Shown: positions 2,684 to 60,873 of the stretch, one piece after another | How the letters are laid out: the number at the start of each line of letters is the position of its first letter | How positions within the stretch are numbered: the stretch's first letter is position 1 | Sequence record: MW349128.1 | Source of the DNA: Staphylococcus phage Machias | DNA: 64,000 nucleotides | Direction: 5' to 3' (one strand) | Notes under the pieces: model-generated | The model's input: only the letters and a program-made list of their open reading frames with translations | Database searches by the model: none | Told to the model about the DNA's origin: nothing | Made by a program: the position numbers and the translations under genes

Positions 2684-2845
2684 TAATTTTAATGGCTCAG
2701 TATAAATATTGTTAATTGCTGGAAAAGTTTACAAGCTTAATCAGCATCAATCAAGATGATTGTTCAACGACTAAATATAATAATACTTATTAATAGTATA
2801 AGATATAGTCTAATCTATATGAATTTCATATAGTTAATATAAATG
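2684..2845 (+). mobile_element. Mini group I intron nrdE-I2 (~162 nt, ORF-less)
   Basis: P ATTAATTGCTGG (2712-2723), Q TTAATCAGCATC (2746-2757), R GTTCAACGACTAAAT (2762-2776), S AAGATATAGTCTAAT (2800-2814); ends ...ataaatG| at 2845; splices VNQLG to QRNGAGALYLNIFH. Confidence 0.7.
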
Positions 2846-15199: not shown

Positions 15200-15249
15200 T
15201 GTTTAATTTCACCTCCTAATCATATTATATAAATATGTTAGGAAATTCC

Positions 15250-15300: not shown

Positions 15301-15304
15301 GAGC

Positions 15305-15410: not shown

Positions 15411-15442
15411 TCTTTGCTAATTAAAATTACTTTTAATAGGGA

Positions 15443-42956: not shown

Positions 42957-43679
42957 ATGTTAGTAAAGGAGAATAAAGAAGTGAAGTTAAAGAATAGAGA
43001 CAGTATACGTATAGATCAATTAATGACAATTAATTTAAATGATCCATCTTCAAAGAATATTATTACTTTTCAGTTATTACTGGAAAGTAATATTTTAAGT
43101 TGTTATATTAAAGATAATCTAGATAAAACGTTATTTACTAAAAATGAGTTAAACAAATATGAAGAATTTATAAATTATACCATAGACAATTTTGAATCTG
43201 AAGGTATAAGAATTAATGGAAAAGAGGATAAATTTTTAACTGATCTATTAAGAAAAGCATCAATTAAAAGATTAGTTAAAATGGTAGACTCTGATACTAT
43301 GATTATTAATGATAAATATCTATTTATTAATCGATTAATTAATATAGGAACTAAAATTAAAGAAGATGATTCCAAGTATATTTCGGATGTAATATACATC
43401 AATTTTAAAGATGAAGTTAATCAAAATAAATTAAATAAAATTATATTAAATCCTAATTTACAATCTGTAATAGAATATCTAATTCATAGGAATTTAATTA
43501 AAGAAATTGATGAAAAAATATTATACAAATGGATTATGTTTTTAGATGAGAATATTAGTAAATGTAAAAGTACTGTATATTATAGGTTAAATCATAGCTT
43601 AGTTAGTTTAATAAATAAGTATAATAATATACAAGAAGCTAAAGGTTATTTAGGATATGAAAGATTAGAATTAGAATGA
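42957..43679 (+). CDS. hypothetical protein (240 aa)
   Basis: RBS agaggtt. Confidence 0.4.
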   Translation: MLVKENKEVKLKNRDSIRIDQLMTINLNDPSSKNIITFQLLLESNILSCYIKDNLDKTLFTKNELNKYEEFINYTIDNFESEGIRINGKEDKFLTDLLRKASIKRLVKMVDSDTMIINDKYLFINRLINIGTKIKEDDSKYISDVIYINFKDEVNQNKLNKIILNPNLQSVIEYLIHRNLIKEIDEKILYKWIMFLDENISKCKSTVYYRLNHSLVSLINKYNNIQEAKGYLGYERLELE

Positions 43680-43733
43680 TTTAATATTTTTAGATATTAT
43701 TATAGATAACTTTAAATAAGGAGAGAATAAATA

Positions 43734-43946
43734 ATGAACCCATCCAGTCCAACTAGTCCTCTAAACCCAGCTAATCCAGCTAGTCCAACTAATCCTGCAA
43801 ATATGTCAGATCATAATAATAATAGCCTTAACGAATCATTATTTAACTTTCCAGATTCTTTCTTAGAGTTTATAATAACGTTTGGTGTGTTAACAATTAT
43901 TTTATTTGGTATTTTCTTTGCAATTTCATTTATTAGAAATTATTAA
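43734..43946 (+). CDS. Small membrane protein with N-terminal Pro-rich tandem repeats and one C-terminal TM helix
   Basis: SPTSPLNPANPASPTNPAN repeats; FIITFGVLTIILFGIFFAISFI hydrophobic segment; RBS aaggagag. Confidence 0.45.
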   Translation: MNPSSPTSPLNPANPASPTNPANMSDHNNNSLNESLFNFPDSFLEFIITFGVLTIILFGIFFAISFIRNY

Positions 43947-43954
43947 AATATATT

Positions 43955-43990
43955 CCCCTAATACTATTAATTTAGTATTAGGGGAAAATT
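43955..43990. terminator. Bidirectional terminator
   Basis: CCCCTAATACTA-ttaatt-TAGTATTAGGGG. Confidence 0.6.
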
Positions 43991-43998
43991 ATTATTTT

Positions 43999-44274
43999 TT
44001 ATTTCTTACTGTCTAATTCAGCTAATTTTAATTTAGCTTTAGTCGCATATTTTTGACGGATTATATCACGCCATTTTTTACGAGCACGAGCAGCTTTTTG
44101 ATATTTAAAGTAAATTGGATCTTGAGCTTCTTTAGCAGCAACTAAAGCTAATTGGTTCAATCTACGTTTACGTTTAGTTTGTTCATCTAAACGCATGATA
44201 TTTTGCTCACGTAAAAGAGCTTCATCAGTAGCTTTCATAATTTGCTCTTCTAGTGGAGATAAATTATTAGACAA
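43999..44274 (-). CDS. small basic protein (91 aa)
   Basis: K/R-rich ORF on the minus strand. Confidence 0.4.
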   Translation of the reverse strand: MSNNLSPLEEQIMKATDEALLREQNIMRLDEQTKRKRRLNQLALVAAKEAQDPIYFKYQKAARARKKWRDIIRQKYATKAKLKLAELDSKK

Positions 44275-44406
44275 AATATTTCACATCTCTTTCTTAGATT
44301 TATTTAGTTTATTAATAAATAGTATGTTTTGTTAATGATAGTTTAAAAATTTTAATAATAAAGAATAACTAGATTTTTATAATTATGTAGGAGGTTAGTA
44401 AACCAA

Positions 44407-45430
44407 ATGACAACAGAATTAAAGAATAAAGAAGAAAGAAAAAGAGCTTTAACTGGATATTTAGAACAATTGGTATGGATGGTTCAAAAGAATAATCCTG
44501 ATTTTGATAAAGAAGAAATATTAAAAGAATGTAGAGAATTTGTAAAAGAAAATGTTAAACCTGTTATGACAGAGGTATCAGGTCAAGAAATGAATGTTGA
44601 TTCTTTATTACGTACAGTTATTAATTCAAATTTAATAGTAACTGGATCAGGTTCGATTTATCAAACACAATCACAAAGAAAAAATTTAAATGCAGAGATG
44701 TTAAAAGACTTCATTGATTCACGTAAAGTAGCTAAACATAATATGTTTATAAGTAAAGGTGTAGACGATGTTAAATATCATAAATATATGAATGAACAAA
44801 AAACAATTAAGATCTTGGCTAATAGTTACTATGGTGCTATGATACAAGGAAATAGTATTTTCTATGATCCTTATTCAGGACCTGCTATCACATATAGTGG
44901 TGTTGATATTGTTACGACTTCAGCAATAGCTTTAGAAAGATTTATAGGTAGTAAAATATTCTTTATGAATATTAGTGAGATTTATAATTATATCGTAAGA
45001 ATATGTCAAGAAGAATATAAAGATCATGATATTAAGATAAATTCAGTTCCTACTGATAATGAAATATTAAAAGGTTTATTGGATAACGTAGAATATAATT
45101 TCTCTGAAGATGAAGAAAATGATTTAAAAGAATTCTTTAGTAATTTAACTCAAGATGAGAAAAATAGAGTTTATTTTAAAAATAATCTTTATGGTTTATT
45201 AGATCACACTGATATATTTGATAATAAAATTAGTAAAATGACAGGTAGAGAAGATTTCTTAGATCCGAACGAACCACCTGAAGATATGATACCATTATTA
45301 GATGAATTATTTGATATATTAGAAGACTGGGTTATTTATAATTATCAAGATTACAATAGAATGTATAGAATGAATTATAAAAAACGTAGAAGTGTACTTA
45401 CAATCGATTATGATAACATGGTCGCTGCTT
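44407..45430 (+). CDS. Family-B DNA polymerase, C-terminal half, exon 1 (motif B to motif C); no exonuclease/motif-A region in this gene
   Basis: Kx3NSxYG motif KILANSYYGAM; following IFYDPYSGPAITYSGVD (compare RB69 FRYYDLRNATAITTFGQ); motif-C-like VLTIDYDNM at the very end; strong RBS taggaggt means it is an independent start. Confidence 0.65.
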
Positions 45431-45591
45431 AAAGTAATTTAAGTTGATTCACATTATTAATTGCTGAGAAAGTATTTATTAAATTAATCAGCATCAATCA
45501 ATATGATTGTTCAACGACTAAATATAATGATACTCATAAAGAGTATATGATATAGTCTATTTTATATTTAAAAATATAATATTAAAGACAG
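45431..45591 (+). mobile_element. Mini group I intron polB-IA (3' end uncertain: 45591, 45603 or 45612)
   Basis: 5' aaagtaatttaagttgat..., P TTAATTGCTGAG, Q TTAATCAGCATC, R GTTCAACGACTAAAT, S ATGATATAGTCTAT; the in-frame continuation has no stops. Confidence 0.6.
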
Positions 45592-45840
45592 ATAGTAACT
45601 TCGTACATTTAGATCCATTATATCAAAAAATGAAAGAAAAGAAACCTGAAGATTTCCCTATTGCAGAAAATGGTTTAGAAGATAAATTAGAACAACGTGT
45701 AGGTAATATATCTATTATTAACTATCAAATTACTAAATTGCTAGAATTATCTTATCATAGATTCTGTAAAGATTTAGGATTAGAAGATGAACATTTAGGT
45801 GTTATATCTATGAAAAATGAGTATGTAAATGCTCCAGTAT
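45592..45840 (+). CDS. DNA polymerase B exon 2 (~83 aa)
   Basis: Open frame ...LDPLYQKMKEKKPEDF...NEYVNAPV joining exon 1 and exon 3 in frame. Confidence 0.55.
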
Positions 45841-45996
45841 ACAGTAATGTGTATTAGTAAATATTATTAATTGCTGAGACAAAATAAAATTAATCAGCAT
45901 CTTCAAATAATGAAGTTCAACGACTAAATATAATAATTCTTAATAATAAAGAATATGATATAGTCTAGTCTTATATTTAAAATATAAGTATAAACG
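45841..45996 (+). mobile_element. Mini group I intron polB-IB
   Basis: 5' acagtaatgtgtatt..., full P/Q/R/S set; 3' end ...ataaacG|; the E2(t)+tt+E3 junction reads ...NAPV-F-LLDKQ in frame. Confidence 0.65.
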
Positions 45997-46697
45997 TTTT
46001 ACTTGACAAACAGTTAACAACAGATAAAAAGAAAACTTATGCTTCATCAGTAATTCAACAAGAGGGTAATTTAGTTCAACCACCAGACTTAGATGTTAAA
46101 GGTATGGCTATTAGAAAAGTTAATACTAATAAACGTATTAGAGAATTATTTACTGAAATATTACAAAAAGATATCTTAGAAAATAAAACTGGAATTGATA
46201 GAATTGGAATTATACGTAAATATAAAGAAATTGAAGAAATGATTAAAAAATCATTAGAGAATGGTGATATTGAATTCTTAAAACCTGGTAAAGCTAATAA
46301 CGCAGAAGTATATAAAGATCCTTATACACAAATGAATTATAGAGCAGCTTTATCATGGAATTTAATGTATCCAGATAAAGAAATATCTCTTCCAGCAAAT
46401 ATCTTAATGGTTAAATTAAATATTAAATCATTTGGAGATATTAAGGATAAAGTTGATGATGAAGAATTATTAGATAAATTTAGAGAAGTATTTAGAAACG
46501 AAAGATTAGTTAAAAATGGAATGAATGTAATTGCAGTTGAAGGTAATACAATTCCTGAAGAATTTAGACCTTTTATTGATTATGATTCAATGATAGAAGA
46601 TCATATTAAACCAGGTAAAGATATTATTGAATCTATTGGAGTTAAAGTGTTAGAATCTTCAAATAGTTCTTTCGTATCAAATATGGTTAAATTTTAA
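45997..46697 (+). CDS. DNA polymerase B exon 3 (C-terminal thumb; KGxxxRK = KKRY-like motif)
   Basis: ...PPDLDVKGMAIRKVNTNKR... in the same frame as the track ORF 46104-46697, open upstream to the splice site. Confidence 0.6.
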
Positions 46698-46720
46698 AAA
46701 AAAAAAGGAGGGTATATTTA

Positions 46721-47224
46721 ATGAGATACTTTTTATTTAAACCTAAAAAGTTTCAAGAACTATTTGAAACTGAAAAGAAATTATCATCTGTCTTTGAATA
46801 TTATAGAGATATGAAAAAAGATATTGTATTTAAAGTTGATGAAAATGATGATATTTTTATGATGTTATATAATATTTTAAGTGATGAAATATTACCTTTT
46901 ATAAGATGTAAAGTATACAATAAAAAAGATGGAGAAATACTAAAAGCATCAGAATTATATGTCCCTATTAGTTTGGATATTCATAAAGAAATAAATATAA
47001 ATAAAAATAGTATAGAGTATGATTCTAACATGCCTTATAAACATGGTTTAATTGAATGTCCATCTATTGACGAAGATAATACTAACAATTATCTTCGTTT
47101 AAATTTTCAATATAATGACAAAGATGATTATTTTTATATTTACTTAAATGATATTTATGCTATTTTTGAAGAGATAGATAAAACAGAATTTATGAAAATA
47201 GAAACTAAAAAGAATTTTATGTAG
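46721..47224 (+). CDS. hypothetical protein (167 aa)
   Basis: RBS aaaggaggg. Confidence 0.45.
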   Translation: MRYFLFKPKKFQELFETEKKLSSVFEYYRDMKKDIVFKVDENDDIFMMLYNILSDEILPFIRCKVYNKKDGEILKASELYVPISLDIHKEININKNSIEYDSNMPYKHGLIECPSIDEDNTNNYLRLNFQYNDKDDYFYIYLNDIYAIFEEIDKTEFMKIETKKNFM

Positions 47225-47283
47225 ATTGAAAAAATTTATTATTTTCATATAAAAATTCTTGCTTAATTTTTAATTTTATGTTA

Positions 47284-47300
47284 AAATATATATTATAAAA
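47284..47300 (+). promoter_or_regulatory. Promoter-like motif AAATATATATTATAAAA (copy 2)
   Basis: Exact 17-mer, 62 nt upstream of the 47362 start. Confidence 0.45.
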
Positions 47301-47361
47301 ACGAGAATATGTCACTATTAAAATTAAACTTATTCTTAATAAATTTGGAGAGTGAAAAGAA

Positions 47362-48672
47362 ATGGCAAAACAATCAGATGTATTTAGTAAAAAGAAATCA
47401 TTATATAGAAAAAATGGTAGAAAAATACCTTCTAAGTTTAGAAAGATGGATGTAGATGGTACTTGGTTTTATAGATTTGATCATAATAGATTTATCATTG
47501 ATAATTTAACTAGATTTATGGAAGATAAAGAATTAAAAAAATTATTAAATGATTATAGAAATAATTATGATAATAAAGAAAAATTTAATAATGATTGTTA
47601 CTTCTTTGAATTAGATAAAGATATACCTAAATTAAATAAATCTCAATTAAAGATATTCTTCACTCATTTATCTAGAAAACATATTGGAAAAGATTTCTTA
47701 AAAAATATTACTTTGAAAGATAATTCTAAATTAGAAATAAAAGAATTTGATGATTTAGAAATATGGTCAAGAGAACCTGATAAAGAAGAAGTATATGACG
47801 TTGGTTATCTTGATATGAAAGATTATAGAATGATTGCTCATATTGATCATGAAAATGAAGAAATTGTTATTCATACAGATATTGAAGAAGAAAATCCAAA
47901 ATCATATAGTACTTTAATTAGTTCTTTAGAATCAATTGAAATTGATGATTATTATGAAGATATTAGCTCTGATGAAATAAGAATTAAATTAAATGACTTT
48001 AATTTAAGAAAAGTATTTAATAAGACTAATAGTAAAATATTTAAAGTTATTTTACCAGTTACTTATAATTATGAAGGTTTTGATGATCAAGTGTCCTTCT
48101 TATTTGATAATTTCAGTAAAACATATATTAAACAACTTGAAAAAGAAGAATACGATAAGAAAATGCCTATCGGAGGACAACCTTATCATTTAAGACCTGA
48201 AAATAGACCTTATTATGCTAAACGTAGAATAATTAAAGATTGGAATATTTATGAAATATTTGATGAAGATAAAGATGGATATAAATTATTCAGTGTTAAA
48301 GATGATCAAGGGTTTATTTATTTAATATACTATATTGGTAAGAATTATCATGGTAAAGGTATAATAGTTAACGGTAAAGAATCTCCAGAACTTCAAGATC
48401 CGTCTAATTATAGAAAATCAGTTAAATTAAAAGATATTTATTACAGTGTATTAATTTCACAAGCTAAATATAATCTAATGAAGAAAAATAAATTTGATAT
48501 TTATACAGCTTTTGATACATCCAACCCTAAATATATGACAATTTCAGATGAAGAAAATATTCATACAACTGATTTCTTAATACCTGAAAGACCATTTAAA
48601 ATTAGACAAACTAAATTTAGAGAAGATAAAATATCAAATTTAAAAGATAAATTCGTAGAGGAGTTTGAATAG
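47362..48672 (+). CDS. hypothetical protein (436 aa)
   Basis: RBS ggagagtg. Confidence 0.45.
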   Translation: MAKQSDVFSKKKSLYRKNGRKIPSKFRKMDVDGTWFYRFDHNRFIIDNLTRFMEDKELKKLLNDYRNNYDNKEKFNNDCYFFELDKDIPKLNKSQLKIFFTHLSRKHIGKDFLKNITLKDNSKLEIKEFDDLEIWSREPDKEEVYDVGYLDMKDYRMIAHIDHENEEIVIHTDIEEENPKSYSTLISSLESIEIDDYYEDISSDEIRIKLNDFNLRKVFNKTNSKIFKVILPVTYNYEGFDDQVSFLFDNFSKTYIKQLEKEEYDKKMPIGGQPYHLRPENRPYYAKRRIIKDWNIYEIFDEDKDGYKLFSVKDDQGFIYLIYYIGKNYHGKGIIVNGKESPELQDPSNYRKSVKLKDIYYSVLISQAKYNLMKKNKFDIYTAFDTSNPKYMTISDEENIHTTDFLIPERPFKIRQTKFREDKISNLKDKFVEEFE

Positions 48673-48675
48673 TAT

Positions 48676-49410
48676 ATGGAGGATAATGAATATATGTATA
48701 CAGAAGATGAAATGAATACAGGTCATATAGTTGCGGATTGTGATGAAGTTTTAGTCAATATATCGCCAAAGATAGTTCAATTAATGCATGAAGATTATGA
48801 ATATTATAATCAATTCTTTAGATTATCTGAAGATTTTGATTATAATAAACATTATGATGTAATATTAAGTAGACCTGAATACTATATAGATCAATGGTTA
48901 GTTAGAAAAGATGTTTATAATAACTTTTCAGAAAAAGAAGTTAATGAAGCAAGAGAAAGACTACAAAATGAAATTATATTTAAAAAAGATTTATATGATG
49001 AACTTCAACCAACTAATTTAGGTAGAAGTTTATCATATACCATTAATACACCGTTAATGAATAAATTAACTATCGTTACTAAAACTTCAGATAATAATCT
49101 AAAATCTAAAGAGAAGTTTTTAAAAACTTTATTTAGAGGAAGTATGGATAAAGTTGATATATTCTACTTAGAACCAGATGAGAAAAAATCTGATGTGATT
49201 AATTCTTTAGGATATGTTACTAGAATATATGAAGATGAAGTAAGTAATATTAGTGATATTATAAAGAACTGTCAAAATGTAACACAAACAGGAATTGATA
49301 TTCCTTCATTGGGATATAATCAAGATATCGATGAAGGAACGATATTAAAAGCTAAAGAAAAGAAAATTGATTTAAACTATTTCAGTTATATGGGACAAAG
49401 TATTAAATAA
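48676..49410 (+). CDS. HAD-superfamily 5'(3')-deoxyribonucleotidase-like protein (NT5C-like)
   Basis: N-terminal HIVADCDEVLVNISPKIV resembles HAD motif I (DxDxV) of NT5C-family enzymes. Confidence 0.4.
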   Translation: MEDNEYMYTEDEMNTGHIVADCDEVLVNISPKIVQLMHEDYEYYNQFFRLSEDFDYNKHYDVILSRPEYYIDQWLVRKDVYNNFSEKEVNEARERLQNEIIFKKDLYDELQPTNLGRSLSYTINTPLMNKLTIVTKTSDNNLKSKEKFLKTLFRGSMDKVDIFYLEPDEKKSDVINSLGYVTRIYEDEVSNISDIIKNCQNVTQTGIDIPSLGYNQDIDEGTILKAKEKKIDLNYFSYMGQSIK

Positions 49411-49419
49411 ACAAATAAT

Positions 49420-49470
49420 CCATGTTTGACAAATTCAAGTCAAACATGGATTTATTATAATTTTTTTTTT
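49420..49470 (+). terminator. Rho-independent terminator
   Basis: CCATGTTTGAC-aaattcaa-GTCAAACATGG followed by T10. Confidence 0.65.
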
Positions 49471-49508
49471 ATAAAAATTGACATTGAGGAAGGAAATTAA
49501 AATGAAAA

Positions 49509-49802
49509 ATGGACATTAAAGATTTCATAATAGTTTTTTCTTTATTCTATCTTATTTTAGTTGCTATACCGTCTGTAATATTCTTAAGTAAAATTAATTA
49601 CAAAAAGAGTAATAAAATTATTATATTATTCTTTAATATAATAATCGTTTTATTTATATGTATTACTGTATTACTGTATAATTTATTTAATAAAGAAGAT
49701 AATAAAGAATCACTAAAATATTATAATAAAGAAGAAAATATAATAGATTATTATATCGAAAAAGATATTAATCCATTATTAAAAGAAAGTGATGTGAAAT
49801 AG
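49509..49802 (+). CDS. small membrane protein (2 predicted TM helices)
   Basis: FIIVFSLFYLILVAIPSVIFL and IIILFFNIIIVLFICITVLLY. Confidence 0.4.
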   Translation: MDIKDFIIVFSLFYLILVAIPSVIFLSKINYKKSNKIIILFFNIIIVLFICITVLLYNLFNKEDNKESLKYYNKEENIIDYYIEKDINPLLKESDVK

Positions 49803-49805
49803 TAA

Positions 49806-50979
49806 ATGAAAGTAGATATGATAGATATTGAACAAGTCATAACTGATACAAATGCTAAAGAAGTAACCAATCCTGTATTTTTCGATTCAGGTATACTACC
49901 AAAAGAAGATGGTTTATTTTCATATGATATATTTGGTTTAATAGGTACTCCTGAAAGAAAAACCAATTTAGGTTGGATTAATTTAAAGGATAAATACCTT
50001 AATCCGGTGGCTTATAAAGCATTAAAAGATTTAGATAAAAATATTGAACTATGTATTCAGGGTTCAGAGTATTTTAAAGTAGAAAAAGGTCAATTAGTTC
50101 CTTCAGAAGATGGAGATACTGGACTGAATTTCTTATATGAAGTATTTGATGATTTAAAATTTAGAAAGAATGATTCTCGTATTAGATCTGAAAAAATTGA
50201 TATGATTAAAAATACAGATAAGCAAAAAATATTTGTAGATAAATGGCTAGTAATACCTGCTTTTTATAGAGACTTTAATCCTAATGAAACTTCAGGAGAA
50301 ATTCAAGATACTGAAGAAGTTAATAATATGTATTCTTCTATTATACGTTCTGTAGATGCTATTAGTTTTAATTCTTTTGGTTTTATTGCTAACAGTACTA
50401 AATATAATATACAAAATACATTATTTGAAATATATCAGAAATTTACTTCAGGAGAATTATCAGGTAAAACTGGTTTTATGCAAAAACGTATATTGGGTAA
50501 AACAGTAGATAATAGTACTCGTGCAGTTATTTCTTCACCTAAAATTAATTCGAATAGATGGGATGAAATGCAGATAGAGTTTGGTGAGTTAGGTGTACCA
50601 TTAACTCAATTAGTTACCTTATTTTTACCATTCTTTAATAAGTATATAATTGATTTTATTGAACTTCATAAAGATGCTTTCCAAACAGCTACTGGAAATG
50701 ATGAGAAAGAATTATCATTAGAAGAAGTGTATGAACAATTCGATGATAAATCTATTAAGAATATGCTAGAATTCTTTATTAAAGATCCTAATGAAAGATT
50801 TAGTCCTATATATGTAAATGATAGAGAAGGTAAACGCCATAAAGTTAAATTATTTGAAAAAACTTTGGGTAGAGATTTTACTGTAATTGATTTACTTTAT
50901 ATTGCTGCAACCGAAATAGTAGAAGATAAGCATGTTATGTATTCAAGATATCCGATTAATAAAATGGTCGCTGCTTAAA
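49806..50979 (+). CDS. Multisubunit RNA polymerase beta-prime-like subunit (N-terminal half), exon 1
   Basis: LPKEDGLFSYDIFG (compare KPERDGLFCERIFGP), GWINLKDKYLNPV (compare GHIELASPTAHIW), KRILGKTVDNSTRAVISSP (compare GKRVDYSGRSVIVVGP); no Zn finger, as in phiKZ/AR9-type phage RNAPs. Confidence 0.7.
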
Positions 50980-51140
50980 GTGATTTAAGTTGATAAACAT
51001 TGTTAATTGCTGAAATACTATTAATAAAGTTAATCAGCATCAATTAAATATAATTGTTCAACGACTAAATGCAATGATACTATTTAATAGTATATAATAT
51101 AGTCTAATTTATATAATACTTATATAAATATAATAAATGC
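50980..51140 (+). mobile_element. Mini group I intron rpoC'-IC (3' end uncertain, 51139-51156)
   Basis: 5' aaagtgatttaagttgat..., P/Q/R/S set, S at ~51100-51108, ...ataaatG at 51139. Confidence 0.6.
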
Positions 51141-51341
51141 GAAAATTTCTTGAACGTAGCACCTGCTAAAATTAAAATATTAACTACTGTTGATACTATT
51201 CCAGAAATAATTTTAGATGATATAGTATTAAAAGATTACCCTAAAGTAGTAAGAGAGTATCCTGTTGATGAAGATATTTTCTTAGATACTGCAATCATAC
51301 ACAATTCATATGCTCAAGCACTTGGTGCAGATTTTGATGGC
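51141..51341 (+). CDS. beta-prime-like exon 2, ending in ...HNSYAQALGADFDG (first part of the catalytic NADFDGD motif)
   Basis: ADFDG followed by an intron; the frame is open back to ~51120. Confidence 0.6.
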
Positions 51342-51491
51342 AAAATTTTATATTACCATCATTAAATAATATTAATTGCTGGAAAATCTAATAAGATAAT
51401 CAGCATCAACTTAATAAAAGTTGTTCAACGACTAAATATATTACTAAAGAAGATATAGTCTAATTATATGTAAATACATGTATATAAAATG
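51342..51491 (+). mobile_element. Mini group I intron rpoC'-ID, splitting the DFDG|D catalytic motif
   Basis: P ATTAATTGCTGG 51372, Q, R GTTCAACGACTAAAT, S AAGATATAGTCTAAT ~51450-51464; ends ...aaaatG| 51491; next exon begins DMISIRSLWSVEA (compare [14 protein letters not shown]). Confidence 0.65.
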
Positions 51492-51617
51492 GATATGATT
51501 TCAATACGCTCTTTATGGTCTGTAGAAGCAAATAAAGAAGCTGATAAACTTATTAATAAGAAAACTAATTACTTAAACTACACAGGAAATAGTATACGTG
51601 GAGTTGGTAATGAGAGT
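51492..51617 (+). CDS. beta-prime-like exon 3 (42 codons DMISIRSLWSVEANKEADKLINKKTNYLNYTGNSIRGVGNES)
   Basis: Completes the NADFDGD-like motif and aligns with the segment after it in bacterial beta-prime; not in the ORF track (<60 aa). Confidence 0.6.
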
Positions 51618-51759
51618 AAGTTTGTATGCTCTCAATAAATTTCATTAATTGCTGGAAAAACAAAATTAATCAGCATCAACTTAATAAAAGTTGTTCAACG
51701 ACTAAATATGAAAATGATTTAAATATCATAAGATATAGTCTAATTATCATAAATATATG
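51618..51759 (+). mobile_element. Mini group I intron rpoC'-IE
   Basis: 5' aagtttgtatgctc..., P AATTGCTGG 51647-51655, Q, R, S ~51730-51744, ...aaatatatG|. Confidence 0.55.
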
Positions 51760-51792
51760 GTACAAGCTTTATATTCTTTAACTAAAGAATAA
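51760..51792 (+). CDS. beta-prime-like terminal mini-exon (VQALYSLTKE-stop); boundary tentative
   Basis: In frame with exon 3; resembles ...AERLYRSGLA; followed by a terminator. Confidence 0.35.
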   Translation, partial: VQALYSLTKE

Positions 51793-51803
51793 TTTAAAAA
51801 TTC

Positions 51804-51840
51804 AGAGTAACGGTCTAATATAGATCGTTACTCTTATTAT
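51804..51840 (+). terminator. Terminator hairpin after the split beta-prime gene
   Basis: AGAGTAACG-gtctaatatagat-CGTTACTCT then TTATTAT. Confidence 0.55.
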
Positions 51841-51866
51841 ATTGCTTTTATACAAAATACTTATTT

Positions 51867-51883
51867 AAATATATATTATAAAA
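51867..51883 (+). promoter_or_regulatory. Promoter-like motif AAATATATATTATAAAA (copy 3), heading the paralog array
   Basis: Exact 17-mer 30 nt upstream of the 51913 start. Confidence 0.45.
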
Positions 51884-51912
51884 TAGAAGTATATTAAAAT
51901 ACAAAAGGAGAA

Positions 51913-52545
51913 GTGATTATTTTGAATATTAATGATTATAGATATTTTAAAATGGATGATGGATTAATGCAAATCCATAAAGATAAAATTAAAGGAAATA
52001 TTACAGACTTGATAGGAATGTTGCATATTGATGTAGATCGTATCAAGGAAGATAATTTTCTAAATTTAGGTTTAGAAAGATTAAATATAAATATTTCTTT
52101 TGATAATCTTGAATTGGTATGGGAAAATATAAAATTTCAATTTAGTTTGTCGATAATTATTTTTGCTGAAAAACAAGAAAATGAATTAAATGAATATACA
52201 AGTAGTATAAGATTTTTTTATGATAATGAAGAAAGACAAATGGAGAGTGATAGATTTAAAAAACTTATATTAAATGTTGATTATATAAAAAATTTTGTAA
52301 GTTTAATGGTAGATGATAAAGAAATCGATGATTTAACAATTTCTATTTTTAATTATGATAAAAATGATTTTCATTTAAAATGTTCTGATATTGTAATTAG
52401 ATACTTATACGATTTAGAAAGAAGATTTAATGATAAAGGTTATGATTTGTTATTAAATGGTAAGAATATAAATGAATTAGAAGACAATGAAGAAAAAGAT
52501 ATTGATAAGATTAAGAAATATTTAGTGAAAGAAAATTTTAAATAA
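51913..52545 (+). CDS. C-tail family paralog 1 (210 aa; ...KIKKYLVKENFK)
   Basis: RBS aaaaggagaag; conserved C-terminal tail. Confidence 0.6.
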   Translation: MIILNINDYRYFKMDDGLMQIHKDKIKGNITDLIGMLHIDVDRIKEDNFLNLGLERLNINISFDNLELVWENIKFQFSLSIIIFAEKQENELNEYTSSIRFFYDNEERQMESDRFKKLILNVDYIKNFVSLMVDDKEIDDLTISIFNYDKNDFHLKCSDIVIRYLYDLERRFNDKGYDLLLNGKNINELEDNEEKDIDKIKKYLVKENFK

Positions 52546-52556
52546 GGAATGATAAA

Positions 52557-53219
52557 ATGGATAATATAAAAGTATACAATAATACAATAACTAATCAAAA
52601 ATTTTCTTTAGATAATAATGAAATTGATAATGGTAGATTCTTATATAAAGCTATGGAACAAGTAACAAATAAAAATCAAAAGAATATTGAATTTCTTGAT
52701 AGTAGTTTTCTAGTAAATAATATGCAGATGAATTTCCATTTTTATATTTACTCGGATTTTATTATAAACTTTAAAAATCTAACTGGAAAAGATAAAAATA
52801 TATTAATTAATGGTAATAATTCTGATATAACAAGGGCTTCATTTGTCTGTTTTTATGACAATATTGATAATGAAAGAATATTCCAAATTTATCTAAAAAC
52901 AAAGAAATCTAAAAAGATAAGAAATATATTAAAAGATTATGAAAGTGAGAAATATTTAATTGAAAGAATAATGTTAATTGGTGAAGATATATCTTTTAAA
53001 GTAGATTTTAAAAAAGAATATTTAGATAGTATAGAAGATAATGAATATAAGTCTTTAGACAGTTTGATTCACTATATATTAAAAGATATGTTAATTAATA
53101 TAGATGGAGAATTTATACCTTTTATGGAATTTATTAAAAATTATCTTTATTCTATATCTAAAGAAATTACTGATGAAAAAGAAATTAAGAAATATTTAAT
53201 TAAAGAAAATTTTAAATAA
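52557..53219 (+). CDS. C-tail family paralog 2 (220 aa; ...ITDEKEIKKYLIKENFK)
   Basis: RBS taaggaatg; conserved tail. Confidence 0.6.
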   Translation: MDNIKVYNNTITNQKFSLDNNEIDNGRFLYKAMEQVTNKNQKNIEFLDSSFLVNNMQMNFHFYIYSDFIINFKNLTGKDKNILINGNNSDITRASFVCFYDNIDNERIFQIYLKTKKSKKIRNILKDYESEKYLIERIMLIGEDISFKVDFKKEYLDSIEDNEYKSLDSLIHYILKDMLINIDGEFIPFMEFIKNYLYSISKEITDEKEIKKYLIKENFK

Positions 53220-53236
53220 TGGAGTTGAAATAGATA

Positions 53237-53722
53237 ATGATATATTACAAAAATAAAGTAAATGGTGAAATATATGAAGTTAATAATATTCATAGAAAAG
53301 ATGATGCTTTTTATTATGTGTTTGGTAATGAATTTAAAAAAGAGAATTCGTCTTTTTATAGATCTGATGGTAAAAAGATTGACCTATATGATGAAGATGT
53401 AGGAAGTATAAAATTGGAGTTTTTCTTAATTTACGGTTTTATTAATCTTCATTTAACTACGCACATTTCTTGGGATCTTAATAGTATTCCTTTTATACCT
53501 AAAAATATAGATTTAACAAACCAAAATCTTGTCATATCAGACTCTTCAATTGATCTTTATTATTTATTTTATAAAAGATTATGTTATGCGATAGATGTAA
53601 ATATGACACATTATAATATTCCATTAGAAAAATTTAATTTTGATAATGAAGATATATTTGAAATAATTTCAGAAGATTGCAAAGAAGTAAAAGATTTTAA
53701 AGTTAGAAATCATTTTAAATAA
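53237..53722 (+). CDS. C-tail family paralog 3 (161 aa; degenerate tail ...KEVKDFKVRNHFK)
   Basis: RBS aatggagttg; tail diverged. Confidence 0.5.
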   Translation: MIYYKNKVNGEIYEVNNIHRKDDAFYYVFGNEFKKENSSFYRSDGKKIDLYDEDVGSIKLEFFLIYGFINLHLTTHISWDLNSIPFIPKNIDLTNQNLVISDSSIDLYYLFYKRLCYAIDVNMTHYNIPLEKFNFDNEDIFEIISEDCKEVKDFKVRNHFK

Positions 53723-53735
53723 GGAGGAATTATTA

Positions 53736-54407
53736 ATGGAAGGTTATGATTTTGATTTATATATAACAAATAGGGATTTGAAAGATAATCATTTTATGAA
53801 AATAAATAAAGATAGGTATAATAATGATAGAGACTATATTGAAAGAGTAAATACTATCAATATGATAAAATTATTAACTCATGTCTCTTATCCTGATTAT
53901 GAAAATATTATATCATTTAATGTTGACTGTAAACTGAAATTAAGAGGTTTTAATGATTATAAAGATATTAAGTTATCTTATTATCAAGAAGTAGAATCAA
54001 AATCAACTATTATTGCCGGAATATCATTTGTAAAAACTGAATTAAATTTAATAAGTAAAGAGAAAGATAATAGATATCTAACAGATGAATTATTGTATGA
54101 GTATGATATGATGAAAATAAATACAAGTATAAATAATAAACTTAATACAATTAAATTAACTAAAAATGAAGCCACTGCTTTGAATAGTATTAGTCAGAGA
54201 AGTCCTAAATTTCATTTATCACTTGATAAGTTTAGAAGAGAATTCTTAAAGATGATAACTGAATTAAATAAGTATGAAGATATACAGTTTTTAATTGATG
54301 GAACGTATTATAGTTTAGAAGATATCAATTTATACAATAAAGATTTATTTAGAACTGCTACTGATAAGGAATTCAAGAATTATTTAGTTAAAGAAGGATT
54401 TAGATAA
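53736..54407 (+). CDS. C-tail family paralog 4 (223 aa; ...TDKEFKNYLVKEGFR)
   Basis: RBS taaggaggaa. Confidence 0.6.
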   Translation: MEGYDFDLYITNRDLKDNHFMKINKDRYNNDRDYIERVNTINMIKLLTHVSYPDYENIISFNVDCKLKLRGFNDYKDIKLSYYQEVESKSTIIAGISFVKTELNLISKEKDNRYLTDELLYEYDMMKINTSINNKLNTIKLTKNEATALNSISQRSPKFHLSLDKFRREFLKMITELNKYEDIQFLIDGTYYSLEDINLYNKDLFRTATDKEFKNYLVKEGFR

Positions 54408-54410
54408 AAA

Positions 54411-54427
54411 AGTGTATTAAATATATA
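54411..54427 (+). promoter_or_regulatory. Promoter-like motif AAATATATATTATAAAA (copy 4), internal to the array
   Basis: Exact 17-mer. Confidence 0.45.
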
Positions 54428-54502
54428 TTATAAAAATGAGATAATGAATCTAACAGAGTTCATTATCTCTAATAATATCTTAAATAGAGGAGATGAAGTT
54501 AA

Positions 54503-55145
54503 TATGGATAATAATGAATATATAAATAATCATGAATTCTATAAAGTTGATAGTAGAGGACAAATAATAGTAACTAATAAAGATGTTACTAAAGATGAAT
54601 TAAATGTTAATCTATTCAAAGAATTATTTAATTTTAATAATGTTAAGAAAAAAATAGATGAAATTGGTTTATTTTCATTAAAAACCAATAGTATTTTGAT
54701 AAGGGACAAAAATACTTATTACAGAACTAAGAATTCTTATATAGATATAACAGACATGTGCAATAATAATTATTTTGAATTATATTTTGTATTTTCATTA
54801 TTAGATAAAAATGAAAATGGATGCAAGAATATAGGACCTTTTAAAAGTTCAATTAGCAGTCAAGTATTTTCATATACAGCTAAAATTCAAATTAAAAATA
54901 GAGACAATTTGGAACATGAATTAATTTCAAATATAATTGATCTCTTTAGTAGTAAAAAAGAAACAAATTTAATAATATATACAGTTGATTCAGTAGAGGA
55001 TGATATTGATTTTATGACAAGTCGAGAATTTAAGAAAGATTTAATTTTAGAAGAATATACACTCGATGAAATATACAAGGTCTTAGAAAAATTAGAAAGT
55101 GAAAAAGAAATTAAACAATACTTAGTTAAAGAAAATTTTAAATAG
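54503..55145 (+). CDS. C-tail family paralog 5 (start re-set to ATG 54503; ...SEKEIKQYLVKENFK)
   Basis: RBS agaggagatg upstream of 54503; the track start at 54444 would overlap the promoter motif. Confidence 0.55.
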
Positions 55146-55151
55146 AGAGGA

Positions 55152-55697
55152 GTGAAATATATGGATTTAAAAAATTCTAGATTTTTAAGAAAAAGTAAAC
55201 ATCATAAAATAATACAATTTAAGCATAATAATATAAATAATGATCATGTATTAGGATTATCTTTATTAATATTATTTACTAATGTTTATATAAGAAGTGA
55301 TTCTGATGATATTAGTATTTATGATTATTTATCAAATGTATACATGAAAATAGATGGTTATTTAAAAGGTCCTTTATCAATAACGCATGGAGACAATAAT
55401 AGCGTATTAGTATATTCTAGAATTAGATTACCATTAGATCTATTTAAATTAAGAGAATACAATGTTAATACTAGATTATACACATATATTCTTCTTGATA
55501 ATTATGAAACTGATAAAGGAGATTTAATTCAATCCGTTGTTAATGCTTCTGATTATATTATTAAGAATGATAGAATTAAATTAAAAATAATTATTGATGG
55601 AATTGAAAAAGATATTGGTGGTATATTAAAATACTTTGATGAAGTTAAAGATGAAAAAGAAATTAAGAAATATTTAGTAGAAAAAAATTTTAAATAA
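55152..55697 (+). CDS. C-tail family paralog 6 (181 aa; ...KDEKEIKKYLVEKNFK)
   Basis: RBS tagagaggagtg. Confidence 0.6.
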   Translation: MKYMDLKNSRFLRKSKHHKIIQFKHNNINNDHVLGLSLLILFTNVYIRSDSDDISIYDYLSNVYMKIDGYLKGPLSITHGDNNSVLVYSRIRLPLDLFKLREYNVNTRLYTYILLDNYETDKGDLIQSVVNASDYIIKNDRIKLKIIIDGIEKDIGGILKYFDEVKDEKEIKKYLVEKNFK

Positions 55698-55714
55698 TGA
55701 AAGAGGTAATTAAA

Positions 55715-56332
55715 ATGAATGAATCATTATATGTATCTGATATTTTAGAATATAGTTTCATTGATAAAAAGAGTCTTTCTAGAAAAGAATTATTTGATAT
55801 ATCTTTTGATCAATTTTTCAAACATCCAGGCTGTACTGGTTATGATGTTAAAAATGTTCGTCTTTGGATAAATTCTATGGATGGTCTAATTCTAAGATTC
55901 GGTTATGATATGAATAATCTTTTTTATGTAAATGAATTTGATCTTTTCGTAGATAAAAATGATGGTCAATATGAATTTAGTTTTGTATTAGATATTCCAG
56001 CGTTTTCAAAAAAAGAAGTTCACTGTGAAATAGGACCTTTTGTATCTAGAGAAGGTGAAATTGAATTTTATTTTAATGATACAGAAATATATACTGAAGG
56101 AAAAACTTTACTAGACAAAGCTAAAGAATACTTGACTAGAGATATATTTAATAAAAATGGTTCTGCATTTAATGTCTTTTCATTAAATAACGAAGACAAT
56201 ATTCATGATTACAAAATAAGTAAAGAGGATATAAAAGAAATCTATAATTTAAATATTATAGATGAACTATTTAAAGAAGTAACGGATGAAAAGGAAATTA
56301 AAAATTACTTAGTCAAGAAAGGTTTTGAATAA
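55715..56332 (+). CDS. C-tail family paralog 7 (start likely ATG 55715; ...VTDEKEIKNYLVKKGFE)
   Basis: RBS aaagaggtaa before 55715; the track start is 55697. Confidence 0.55.
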   Translation: MNESLYVSDILEYSFIDKKSLSRKELFDISFDQFFKHPGCTGYDVKNVRLWINSMDGLILRFGYDMNNLFYVNEFDLFVDKNDGQYEFSFVLDIPAFSKKEVHCEIGPFVSREGEIEFYFNDTEIYTEGKTLLDKAKEYLTRDIFNKNGSAFNVFSLNNEDNIHDYKISKEDIKEIYNLNIIDELFKEVTDEKEIKNYLVKKGFE

Positions 56333-56333
56333 T

Positions 56334-57011
56334 ATGATTGATTTTAAATTATACAAAAATATAGATAATGGAAAATATATAGAAGCAAAAGATGGTATAG
56401 AAAAATATATTAGATCTTTTTCATTTATTAACTATGTGGATGATAATCTATACTTAGTGAAGCATGAAAAATATACAAAAGACGACTATATATTGAGACA
56501 TCAAGGAATGACTAGAAATTTCATTGTAATTAATCACAATAACATTATGTATAGAATAAAACACATAGAATTGACTATTCGGTTGAAGCTTAATCATGAA
56601 GCTATAATTAATATTAAACTTACACCTACAGCTGCAACTCTTAATAAATTTGAAAGTGTTGGAAATTTCACAAAAGTAAGAAACTTATTTTATAACCGGA
56701 AATTATTTAAATATGAAAATTATCCTAAATTTGAATATGATTATAAAGAAGAAGATCAGATTTTCTTTAGTGAAATGTTTGAAGCGGTATTAAAAGAAAT
56801 TGAAAATGATGATATTGATTTTTATGTAATTAATGAAGAAATTATAGAAGAATTTGAAGAAAATAAGAATAAAATAAAACTAGAAAATTTCTCGAAGTAT
56901 AAAGATGGTACATTAGAAGATTATAATATATTAAATTTCAGTAAGAAATTTATTGAAATTAAAGATGAGAAAGAAATTAAAAACTATTTAGTAAATAAAA
57001 ACTTTAGGTAA
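56334..57011 (+). CDS. C-tail family paralog 8 (...IKDEKEIKNYLVNKNFR)
   Basis: ATG at ~56334 right after the upstream stop; the track start is 56325. Confidence 0.55.
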   Translation: MIDFKLYKNIDNGKYIEAKDGIEKYIRSFSFINYVDDNLYLVKHEKYTKDDYILRHQGMTRNFIVINHNNIMYRIKHIELTIRLKLNHEAIINIKLTPTAATLNKFESVGNFTKVRNLFYNRKLFKYENYPKFEYDYKEEDQIFFSEMFEAVLKEIENDDIDFYVINEEIIEEFEENKNKIKLENFSKYKDGTLEDYNILNFSKKFIEIKDEKEIKNYLVNKNFR

Positions 57012-57057
57012 TTTAATTAACTTACTTTTATAATATATGAAAGAAGTGATTAACTAA

Positions 57058-57843
57058 ATGTCTAATGAAAATAACGGAATTGATTTAATTTCACAAATTA
57101 ATGATATGATGGAAGAATATAAAATGCTAGTTGGATTTAAATCTAAAATGGAACGTAAAGAAATTCAATTAGAAGAAAGAATTAGAGATTTAACTAAGAA
57201 TCTGAAATATCCTAAACATACATTTGTATCTAATATGGAAGCTAATATTATTAGTGTAGAAAAAGAAATTAAAGACACTATTATGCAAATGAAAAATGTT
57301 AAAAAAGATATTATTGACTTAACTATGAAAGCTCAGAAAATGGCTGAAGATGATGAATCTGAAGATAACTATAAAGTGCTTGCTAAAAATGTACTTAGTC
57401 AGCTTAATAATATGTCTAATAAAGATATATTAAACAGCATGACAGAAAATGAAGAAGATACTGCTGAAGATGAAGAAGATTTGAAAGATAAATTAGATCA
57501 AACTTTAGAAAATCTAAATAAAGATATAGATGAAGATGAAAAAGAAATTGAAAAAAGAGAGGAATTACAAAAAGAAGTTAATGAACTTAAACATCAAGAC
57601 TTAGCTTCTATTTTAAAAGTATATAAAGGCACATTGCAATTCTTTGTATTAGGTGATACTCCAAATGAATATGAACTAGTAATTGCTGATAATGAAATGA
57701 ATATCATTGAAGAAGATGAGCTTGAAGATGAATATCCAGAATTATTTACTATGACTAGAGATCTTATCTTTGAAGATGTTGAAGGTAATGATGAAATAGT
57801 TAAAGATGAATTTGGAAATATTTATCAAAAAGCAGAATTTTAG
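57058..57843 (+). CDS. acidic coiled-coil protein (261 aa) embedded in the array; lacks the family tail
   Basis: Highly charged, E/D/K-rich. Confidence 0.5.
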   Translation: MSNENNGIDLISQINDMMEEYKMLVGFKSKMERKEIQLEERIRDLTKNLKYPKHTFVSNMEANIISVEKEIKDTIMQMKNVKKDIIDLTMKAQKMAEDDESEDNYKVLAKNVLSQLNNMSNKDILNSMTENEEDTAEDEEDLKDKLDQTLENLNKDIDEDEKEIEKREELQKEVNELKHQDLASILKVYKGTLQFFVLGDTPNEYELVIADNEMNIIEEDELEDEYPELFTMTRDLIFEDVEGNDEIVKDEFGNIYQKAEF

Positions 57844-58040
57844 ATTATTTTGCCCATAATATATCGCATTAATATATTATGGGTATTTATTATATAGGAG
57901 ATGAATTAAATATGTTAAAAAGATTATATGAATTATTAACTAGAAAAAGATTTGAAAAGAAACTATATGAATTTAAATTTAGTTATCAAGACCATGAGCA
58001 TCTTAATGAAGTTCATGAATTTAGTAAAAACAATTAAGGA

Positions 58041-58451
58041 GTGATATTATTGCTATCAGAATACAGATTAAATAGTAATAAAGAAAATATTAAACAACTA
58101 TTAAGAGATTATGGTTTTAGAAAAGATTCTTATACTAAAGCGTTATTATATAGAAAGCGTGTGACTGATCCAAATGATATTTTGTTCATAGAAGCTGAAG
58201 TGGTTATTGAAACTAATTCAGATCTAGTTAAATTAAATTATTATGATAATAAACATAATAGATTTAATCCTTCTAATGAATCGCCAGAGGTTCAAAAAGG
58301 TTTAAGTATATTAGAAGACATGAAAGAAAAAGAATTATTAATTGAACCAGAATTAACTCAAAATAAAGAAGAAAAAGAAGTTCTTGATAGACTTAAAGAA
58401 CAACGTGAAGAAATGGAAAATGGACAAGTATCACCTAATTCTGAAGATTAG
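58041..58451 (+). CDS. hypothetical protein (136 aa), no family tail
   Basis: RBS taaggagtg. Confidence 0.45.
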   Translation: MILLLSEYRLNSNKENIKQLLRDYGFRKDSYTKALLYRKRVTDPNDILFIEAEVVIETNSDLVKLNYYDNKHNRFNPSNESPEVQKGLSILEDMKEKELLIEPELTQNKEEKEVLDRLKEQREEMENGQVSPNSED

Positions 58452-58454
58452 AAT

Positions 58455-58471
58455 AAATATATATTATAAAA
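58455..58471 (+). promoter_or_regulatory. Promoter-like motif AAATATATATTATAAAA (copy 5)
   Basis: Exact 17-mer 61 nt upstream of the 58532 start. Confidence 0.45.
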
Positions 58472-58478
58472 ACGTTAT

Positions 58479-58503
58479 CCCAATACTATTAAATTAGTAT
58501 TGG
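58479..58503 (+). other. Hairpin between the promoter-like motif and the RBS
   Basis: CCCAATACTAttaaatTAGTATTGGG; same promoter-hairpin-RBS layout as at 41635. Confidence 0.35.
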
Positions 58504-58531
58504 GATTATTATAATAAAAGGAGTTAAATAA

Positions 58532-59311: not shown

Positions 59312-59312
59312 T

Positions 59313-60859: not shown

Positions 60860-60873
60860 AGGAGGATTTTTCG

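Follow-up and report, generated by a model that had tools for sequence, protein, structure and literature searches.

Our analysis of a 64,000-nucleotide (nt) stretch of Staphylococcus phage Machias (MW349128.1; the window hereafter) indicated that a 13-nt sequence, ATGGTCGCTGCTT, present in both polB and the gene for the N-terminal part of the virion RNA polymerase beta-prime subunit, is intron RNA. In each gene it would form the segment of a small group I intron that comprises the 3' strand of helix P1, including the internal guide, and the start of helix P2, with the guide paired to the exon sequence CGAU and the two introns being sister copies. We assign this explanation a probability of about 0.88. 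The initial annotation had taken the 13-mer for an identical exon flank, encoding MVAA, at intron insertion sites in two unrelated genes. That flank is an artefact of reading each open reading frame (ORF) into the intron, and the sequence really common to both insertion sites is the 4-nt CGAT before the intron.

An exact search of the window returned only two matches to ATGGTCGCTGCTT, at 45418-45430 and 50964-50976, which bears out the reported identity of the polB and beta-prime loci; no third site was found elsewhere in the window even at two or fewer mismatches (mean expectation from shuffles at that stringency, 0.21 matches). The second copy exists, although the coordinates first given for it (50966-50979) were off by 2-3 nt, and the two bases before the 13-mer had been swapped (actually aaC-ATGG in polB and aaA-ATGG in beta-prime). 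The MVAA ends were also read correctly, since ORF 44407-45432 gives ..YDNMVAA and ORF 49806-50978 gives ..NKMVAA, both open to the next TAA. The approximately 90% identity described for the following ~45 nt was confirmed and extends to 89 ungapped nt at 87%. Similarity also reaches upstream of the 13-mer to a common CGATTA (CGATTAtgATAAcATGG in polB; CGATTA--ATAAaATGG in beta-prime), and the two introns can be aligned over their full length, with 153 identical positions over 179 and 183 nt (85%). Because the similarity spans the whole ~180-nt elements, the 13-mer belongs to a larger repeat, of which it is one well-conserved part, and is no isolated coincidence.

The exon borders were fixed by intron-free relatives. 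The region is 95-98% identical to the Staphylococcus jumbo phages AH12 and PB50 and 80-84% identical to LY01, MarsHill, Madawaska, S6, PALS_2, DC4, and SA1; the window phage belongs with AH12, PB50, and MarsHill among the Staphylococcus jumbo phages. Both genes are uninterrupted in SA1, S6, and PALS_2, where the intact proteins read ..RRSVLT(V/I)D-TDSNFVHLDP.. (polB) and ..HVMYSRYPI-ENFLNVAPAK.. (beta-prime). The polB site is empty in five phages, with the alleles ACAATTGAC/ACAGAT (S6, PALS_2, MarsHill, and Madawaska; the slash marks the junction) and ACTGTGGAC/ACAGAT (SA1), and the beta-prime site is empty in S6, PALS_2, and Madawaska (TATCCGAT/TGAAAAT) and in SA1 (TACCCTAT/AGAAAAT). These orthologues join ..ATTGAC/ACAGAT.. 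and ..CCGAT/TGAAAAT.., and nothing resembling the 13-mer or MVAA occurs in the intron-free alleles at either site; an ancestral MVAA, a possibility raised initially, thus has no counterpart in orthologous polB or beta-prime genes. The empty alleles place the end of polB exon 1 at 45408 (..ATCGAT) and the restart at 45588 (ACAGATAGT), and the end of beta-prime exon 1 at 50956 (..TCCGAT) with the restart at 51140 (CGAAAAT). The 13-mer therefore lies inside the introns, at nt 10-22 in polB and 8-20 in beta-prime. The initial suggestion that the true boundary might lie further upstream was right in direction, but the shift is 22 nt (polB) and 20 nt (beta-prime), not 13. Spliced polB (44407-45408 + 45588-45822 + 45997-46697) is an uninterrupted 645 amino acids (aa) and spliced beta-prime an uninterrupted 503 aa, both collinear with the intact SA1, S6, and PALS_2 genes, and insertion points fall within catalytic motifs (D/TDS in polB, intron A; DFDG/D in beta-prime, intron D). 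The exons, all on the plus strand, are as follows.

44407..45408 (+): polB exon 1, ending ..ACA ATC GAT (..T I D) inside the DTDS motif
45588..45822 (+): polB exon 2, TDSNFVHLDP...ISMKNE plus the first base of a Phe codon
45997..46697 (+): polB exon 3, stop codon included
49806..50956 (+): exon 1 of virion RNA polymerase beta-prime (N-terminal part), ending ..TAT CCG AT (..Y P I), Ile codon split AT/C
51140..51341 (+): beta-prime exon 2, ending ..GAT GGC inside the NADFDGD motif
51492..51617 (+): beta-prime exon 3
51760..51792 (+): beta-prime exon 4, VQALYSLTKE, then stop

A 5' splice site of intron B after CCAGTAT was considered and is wrong; SA1 and S6 put the site after GAGT. With the borders at 45408/45409 and 50956/50957, the corrected gene models yield polB and beta-prime proteins without MVAA ends, and the same correction touches the AH12, PB50, and LY01 records, which annotate the fragments as separate proteins. 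The tails would never be made from spliced mRNA and could arise only by read-through of unspliced RNA; the proposal that the host protein ends had been rewritten to MVAA fails, the tail being read-through into the intron. That both genes share one read-through frame follows from a 2-nt length difference upstream of the 13-mer, which offsets the differing exon phases, and because the odds of a common frame are about 1 in 3, no special explanation is needed.

The window holds seven introns of this kind, A and C included, and all are listed below with their scores under R1, a covariance model built from the P3-P8 core of 17 copies.

2684..2845 (+): nrdE intron (ribonucleotide reductase alpha), 162 nt; exon end CUGGGU with guide GCUCAG; R1 111.3 bits
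13816..15457 (-): TnpB-carrying intron (virion-protein gene), 1642 nt; exon end CGGAU with guide GUCC; R1 123.3 bits
45409..45587 (+): intron A (polB), 179 nt, ORF-less; terminal G at 45587; R1 99.2 bits
45405-45412/45417-45424, 45427-45444, and 45445-45561 (+): P1, P2, and core of intron A, respectively
45418..45430 (+): 13-mer in intron A, comprising the P1 3' strand with guide (45418-45424, AUGGUCG), the joiner (45425-45426), and the start of P2 (45427-45430)
45823..45996 (+): intron B (polB), 174 nt; exon end GAGU with guide GCUC; R1 87.2 bits
50957..51139 (+): intron C (beta-prime), 183 nt; exon CGAU (50953-50956) with guide GUCG (50967-50970); R1 95.4 bits
50964..50976 (+): 13-mer in intron C, divided among P1, joiner, and P2 just as in intron A
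51342..51491 (+): intron D (beta-prime), 150 nt, without P2; exon end GAUGGC with guide ACCAUC; R1 100.5 bits
51618..51759 (+): intron E (beta-prime), 142 nt, without P2; exon end GAGAGU with guide GCUCUC; R1 103.9 bits

The last intron base is G in all six ORF-less introns of the window (2845, 45587, 45996, 51139, 51491, and 51759; junctions set by intact orthologues), the intact S6 counterpart of the nrdE-intron gene being S6 17943-20144.

Alignment of intron A to the Rfam group I model RF00028 gave P1 as UCGAUUAUG with CAUGGUCGC and P2 as UUAAAGUAAUUUAA, and RNAfold returned the same P1 and P2 from both the 5' end and the whole intron. P1 thus pairs CGAU/UAUG (45405-45412) with CAUGGUCG (45417-45424), and P2 is GCUUAAA-GUAA-UUUAAGU (45427-45444); P2 of intron C (50973-50990) is GCUUAAA-GUGA-UUUAAGU and that of intron B UAUACA-GUAA-UGUGUA, the P2 loops of introns A and C being of the GNRA type (GUAA and GUGA). 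In this modelled fold, AUGGUCG within the 13-mer is the P1 3' strand, GUCG the internal guide, CU the joiner, and GCUU the start of P2, and pairing of guide GUCG with exon CGAU gives a U.G wobble at the splice site. The initial annotation had a guide pairing with GCTGCTT; the 13-mer itself holds the guide, GGUCG, and its partner is the real exon end CGAU. Target choice is indeed linked to the guide, as had been proposed for the two sites, but the common target is CGAT. Comparison among phages is consistent with these roles: in the 13-mer variants ATGGTCGCcGCTT (AH12, intron A), ATGGTCGCTtCTT (AH12, intron C), and cTGGTCGCTtCTT (LY01, beta-prime site), GGTCG is constant and variation, including that of the joiner, falls only outside it, and the LY01 intron at the beta-prime site keeps cUGGUCG and folds as P1 plus P2. 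A different guide, GUUGAU (45443-45448, 3' of P2), was rejected because, unlike the retained GGUCG, it has disappeared from the LY01 copy at the beta-prime site (GAAUGA) and changed in PB50 (GUUGUU), and because both Rfam and RNAfold use CAUGGUCG. By standard group I chemistry, the transcript would fold, free guanosine would attack after the last exon U (45408 or 50956), and the exons would be joined after the last intron G (45587 or 51139), restoring ..LTID-TDSNF.. (the polymerase DTDS motif) and ..SRYPI-ENFLNV.., respectively.

Were the 13-mer instead exon sequence common to the two unrelated genes, it could have served as a homing or reverse-splicing target, with its GCTGCT paired to the guide. 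Both upstream ORFs are open through it to the same TAA stop, and group I introns do pick sites by short pairing. This view is nevertheless refuted by the empty-site alleles, and we give it next to no credence: the intact orthologues at both sites (the five and four phages named above) join their flanks 22 or 20 nt upstream without the 13-mer, insertion within the conserved DTDS motif would be needed, the 5' part of the intron contains no complement of GCUGCU, and the 13-mer falls within P1/P2 in the Rfam alignment as well as in the RNAfold structure. The 13-mer is common to two genes because the introns are homologous, not because both genes offered a target of that length.

The introns themselves belong together. 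The motif GTTCAACGACTAAAT occurs at seven sites in the window against 0.13 expected, and the P/Q/R/S elements of a group I core (AAUUGCUGG, AAUCAGCA, GUUCAACGACUAAA, and AAGAUAUAGUCU) are present at all seven. R1 matched these seven and 34 sites in the complete LY01 genome, all 41 at 78-123 bits, with no match in the SA1 and PALS_2 regions or anywhere in the complete genome of S6; by blastn, intron A found 29 places in AH12, 19 in PB50, 30 in LY01, 11 in Madawaska, and 9 in MarsHill. When the 41 copies were aligned by fitting to the model, standard pairs filled 98.1% of pair cells, compared with 75.7% in column shuffles and 27-45% with slid partners, and double-sided changes numbered 246, compared with 69 in shuffles. 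Covariation is seen in helices P3, P5, P6, and P8, and no change at all in P4 and P7. The smallest copies lack P2 and have a vestigial P8, and the copies are not long enough for the usual extras (P7.1/P7.2 and P9 extensions) of IA2, the subgroup typical of phages. We predict from this covariation that the elements are one family of very small, mostly ORF-less group I introns. RF00028 gave no match across the whole window at the gathering threshold (50 bits) and no group I match at E <= 10 over 11 kb (43000-54000). On stretches shorter than 1 kb it scored 34.2 (D), 29.9 (A), 27.8 (E), 22.4 (C), and 17.3 bits (B), covering A, D, and E end to end, C partially, and B weakly; the intron A match (45400-45579) spans the full model (E = 1e-5). 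We take these sub-threshold scores as a sensitivity limit for short AT-rich members and not as evidence against membership. A scan of IMG/VR with TTAATCAGCATC-N(6-30)-GTTCAACGACTAAAT gave no match, and no relatives were obtained beyond Staphylococcus jumbo phages; literature text searches returned no usable size record for group I introns at the small end.

Rfam's silence at its gathering threshold would also suit a reading of the ~180-nt elements as intergenic repeats (similar to miniature inverted-repeat transposable elements, repetitive extragenic palindromes, or promoters/terminators) between separately translated fragments. The pieces appear as separate coding sequences in several deposited genome records, these phages are known to have split RNA polymerase subunit genes, and Rfam found no introns when the related phage DC4 was analysed in a published study (PMC10638138). 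We consider this reading very improbable, as the junctions lie inside codons (AT/C and T/TT) and catalytic motifs (D/TDS and DFDG/D), the first in-frame starts downstream (e.g., 45630 and 46104) lie well inside the conserved protein in the pieces examined, one LY01 exon is only 6 nt long, and the elements have the P/Q/R/S core, strong covariation in P3, P5, P6, and P8, and end-to-end matches to RF00028.

A relation between guide and target holds across the family. It was traced at 28 distinct sites curated by hand, with S6 as the intron-free reference; other sites were left out, and automatic junction mapping against S6 was noisy owing to AT-rich DNA, micro-exons, and last exon bases differing from S6. 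The exon ends in U at 27 of the 28 sites and in a C paired with A at the other. Contiguous exon-guide pairing at occupied sites averaged 4.64 bp, compared with 2.50 bp for the same guides against S6 alleles and 2.47 +/- 0.19 bp for permuted exon/guide pairs, a statistic that is partly circular because the guides were assigned by hand. In members whose junctions are fixed by protein alignment, the position of the guide is architecturally constant: those without P2 carry a 6-base guide directly before a 6-7-nt A/U-rich joiner that leads into P3, as in the nrdE intron (CUGGGU with GCUCAG), intron E (GAGAGU with GCUCUC), and intron D (GAUGGC with ACCAUC). At the 5' end of intron D (51336-51366), the exon-final C pairs with A of the ACCATC guide, and the MarsHill/LY01 orthologue has GACGGU with GCCGU, a double compensatory change in which U.G becomes C.A at the splice site. 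Introns with guide GUCG sit after CGAT at five different sites, given here with their S6 alleles.

polB, intron A (window): occupied ATCGAT, S6 ATTGAC
beta-prime, intron C: occupied TCCGAT, S6 TCCGAT
LY01, inside NADFDGD: occupied GCCGAT, S6 GCAGAT
LY01, 6-nt exon: occupied TACGAT, S6 TATGAT
LY01, a further gene: occupied GCCGAT, S6 GCTGAT

Other guide/target pairs also recur at unrelated sites (GCUCAG after CUGGGU, GCC after GGU, and GGGCUU after GCCU), and synonymous changes that supply the terminal U or make P1 stronger frequently set occupied alleles apart from empty ones. The recurrence of GUCG with CGAT at five sites shows guide-matched ectopic spread, for which candidate routes are taken up below. 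A separate observation concerns serine codons: AGT precedes the intron at two occupied sites where intron-free alleles have TCG or TCA, namely beta-prime intron E (window 51612-51617, GAGAGT versus GAATCG) and LY01 polB (~4822-4833, GACAGT versus GATTCA). Judged from these alleles, serine has switched codon family there, which brings the exon into agreement with the guide. GAGAGT is also the Madawaska sequence, where no intron is present.

Changed exon bases recall the initial proposal that intron mobility had dragged donor exon sequence along by co-conversion, rewriting both protein ends to MVAA. Exon bases beside occupied and empty sites do differ (ATCGAT versus ATTGAC at the polB site), and in PB50, which lacks intron B, 9 of the 28 differences that separate its exons from those of the window lie no more than 25 nt from the empty site (PB50 ~2480-2530 versus window 45800-46020), compared with 2/28 within the same span for AH12, in which intron B is present. 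What holds of the proposal, on a much smaller scale, is a difference in synonymous exon bases next to splice sites between occupied and empty alleles. As an account of MVAA, however, co-conversion has virtually no chance of being correct, because the changes are synonymous single bases in the true exons that improve guide pairing, MVAA is intron sequence, and a beta-prime donor exon could not enter the unrelated polB by homologous repair.

Several points weigh against the assignment of the 13-mer to the P1/guide-P2 segment of two group I introns. Every RF00028 score (17-34 bits) is below the gathering score of 50, in both introns A and C the exon contributes just 4 bp to P1, RNAfold favours another fold when given only the 5' end of intron C, and the second candidate guide, GUUGAU, could pair with AUCGAU in polB. 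The guides were placed by hand, if at architecturally fixed positions, and fitting the pair-count alignment to the model favours structure somewhat, although the margin is large. Self-splicing is itself a prediction from sequence.

The relatedness of the copies bears on their history. Introns A and C, sister copies and each other's closest relatives, have one another as best match by core identity (0.83). The initial annotation had called the pair direct evidence of recent intron spread within this genome; close paralogy was upheld, but "recent" was an overstatement, as A and C differ at ~15% of positions. The core identity between intron C and the LY01 intron at the same beta-prime site is just 0.71, and three LY01 introns with guide GUCG are mutual nearest relatives (0.77-0.79). 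Copies within a genome are thus more alike than same-site copies across genomes, which fits within-genome spread or gene conversion. Site C is occupied in four phages and natively reads CGAT, and site A is occupied only in the clade of the window phage, AH12, and PB50; MarsHill and Madawaska, unlike the window phage, lack intron A. This distribution fits movement from beta-prime to polB but does not prove it. The PB50 cluster of exon differences resembles a recombination or co-conversion tract that accompanied the gain or loss of an intron, and may reflect exchange among alleles at the DNA level.

LY01 also showed unusual arrangements of the family. Its 6-nt exon TACGAT (40999-41004) lies between group I introns at 40818-40998 and 41005-41188, and the spliced product of 40812-41195, ATCTGT-TACGAT-TGGGTA, matches S6 ATTTGTTATGATTGGGTA at the protein level. 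Clusters of four introns occur, in one gene within ~80 nt of coding sequence. The exons flanking the mini-intron at LY01 40422-40526 map ~1.2 kb apart in S6 (8072 and 6896), with S6_0080 between them; S6, which has none of the mini-intron family, may hold a different, ORF-containing insertion at this site.

One member of the family carries a protein-coding gene. The ORF at 14006-15199 (-) encodes a 397-aa TnpB with HTH_OrfB_IS605, OrfB_IS605, and Cas12f1-like TNB domains, and S6 lacks exactly the 1642-nt unit that contains it. The unit interrupts a virion-protein gene after ..CCGGAT, where the empty S6 site reads CCTGAT. By its sequence features, the unit at 13816-15457 (-) appears IStron-like, with a group I core joined to TnpB in one spliced unit. 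The TnpB copies occupy CGGAT sites (CTGAT in S6) and end in ..CCAG or ..ACAG, similar but not identical to group A IStrons, which target TTGAT, insert after TTGAT/ATTAT/TTTAT, and end in TCAG (PMC4227781). In LY01, two 80%-identical copies of this intron were observed elsewhere, also after CGGAT, together with four more distant TnpB genes.

These TnpB copies raise the question of whether introns A and C moved as DNA, by IS200/IS605-type transposition or by TnpB- or homing-endonuclease-driven repair, in which case the guide/target match would reflect a fixed transposon target, (T)GAT. Besides the CGGAT sites and ..CAG ends, which are similar to those of group A IStrons (PMC4227781), at the five sites of GUCG introns four empty alleles read NGAT, the PB50 empty site has its conversion-tract-like cluster, and endonuclease-carrying introns reside in beta-prime of MarsHill and Madawaska. 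Against this, introns A and C are ORF-less, and most members follow unrelated sequences (CUGGGU, GAGAGU, UGGAAU, and GGCCU) that match only their own guides. No Pfam endonuclease domain was found in the ORFs between, flanking, and after polB and beta-prime, and no TnpA-like gene was found in the window, LY01, or S6 by rough tblastn with an approximate IS608 TnpA query, which is weak evidence. We regard a DNA-level route as a serious possibility, though on balance we would not bet on it.

Alternatively, the mini-introns may have reached new genes by guide-directed reverse splicing into transcripts, followed by DNA copying through a phage retron-type reverse transcriptase; we think this specific route unlikely, if well short of far-fetched. 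The five unrelated CGAT sites with guide GUCG would then be its footprints, as would the CUGGGU, GGU, and GCCU pairs, and the P1-strengthening synonymous changes in the exons would have arisen afterwards as tuning. Reverse splicing needs only a 4-6-nt match, as observed. A retron-type reverse transcriptase gene is annotated in the intron-rich LY01 (23311-24813), and such an enzyme is reported for MarsHill-like phages (10.1101/2020.12.14.422802). Reviews stress the lack of direct evidence for the pathway (PMC3984707), and if it operated here, no other natural example would speak as clearly for a pathway whose support is only circumstantial.

Other repeats of the window lie outside these introns. 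Approximately ten tandem paralogous ORFs of ~200 aa each (52479-61734) share a conserved ~22-aa C-terminus (..EKEIKKYLVKENFK, then stop), a further copy of which ends at 33264. A 1914-aa ORF at 16456-22200 (-) contains a 9-nt periodic repeat (16649-16744; Asn/Gly/Ser-rich) and shares with the neighbouring giant gene a 245-nt segment (17360-17604 and 22694-22938) that is 88% identical, from which the two giant virion-type genes are judged paralogous.

Collectively, a family of ~140-185-nt group I introns that escapes the standard Rfam threshold, with 7 copies in the 64-kb window, 34 in LY01, and 0 in S6, dozens of sites known in both empty and occupied form, and TnpB-carrying relatives, offers a compact natural system for the minimum size of a working group I ribozyme, the mutual adaptation of guides and exons, and RNA versus DNA routes for ORF-less introns. 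In having close relatives at heterologous sites with only a 4-6-nt guide complement in common, it resembles the ribosomal DNA group I introns whose presence at different sites has been taken as circumstantial support for reverse splicing (PMC1299323; discussed in PMC3984707); the sites here are in viral protein-coding genes and the genome encodes a reverse transcriptase, and intermediates have been observed in neither system. Group A IStrons (CdISt1 type; PMC4227781, PMC10690162) are comparable in that one window copy and two LY01 copies join an intron core to TnpB, follow a (C/T)GAT-type site, and end in ..CAG, and ORF-less IStron derivatives are known. In contrast to these, introns A and C lack the insertion sequence part and end in ..AAAG/..AATG, no TnpA was found (with an approximate probe), and the host is a phage genome, the IStrons of Clostridium botulinum phage being of group B.

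Polymerase-gene introns have already been reported for MarsHill-like Staphylococcus jumbo phages, with junctions predicted by protein alignment (Korn et al., bioRxiv 10.1101/2020.12.14.422802); both the phage group and the host genes (DNA polymerase and RNA polymerase subunits) are shared with the present introns. The accessible part of that report lists interrupted genes and exon numbers, without RNA family, structure, guides, copy number, or size. The kind of element is therefore known and its presence in this phage group published, while the structure of the RNA family, its small size, its copy number, and its guide/target regularities seem undescribed in the searchable literature. Introns of Bacillus phage AR9 were reportedly treated by Lavysh et al. 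in 2016. Classical phage group I introns include those of T4 td, nrdB, and nrdD, Twort orf142, and the SPO1 DNA polymerase gene. The window introns share with them the P/Q/R/S core, the (here predicted) self-splicing type, U.G at the 5' splice site, and the 3' G, as well as insertion into conserved motifs of DNA-metabolism genes and a sporadic distribution among close relatives (see also PMC3984707). They differ in being mostly ORF-less and 142-183 nt long, compared with the 250-500 nt usually quoted for group I introns (PMC10964413), and in numbering dozens of copies per genome where the classical introns number one to a few.

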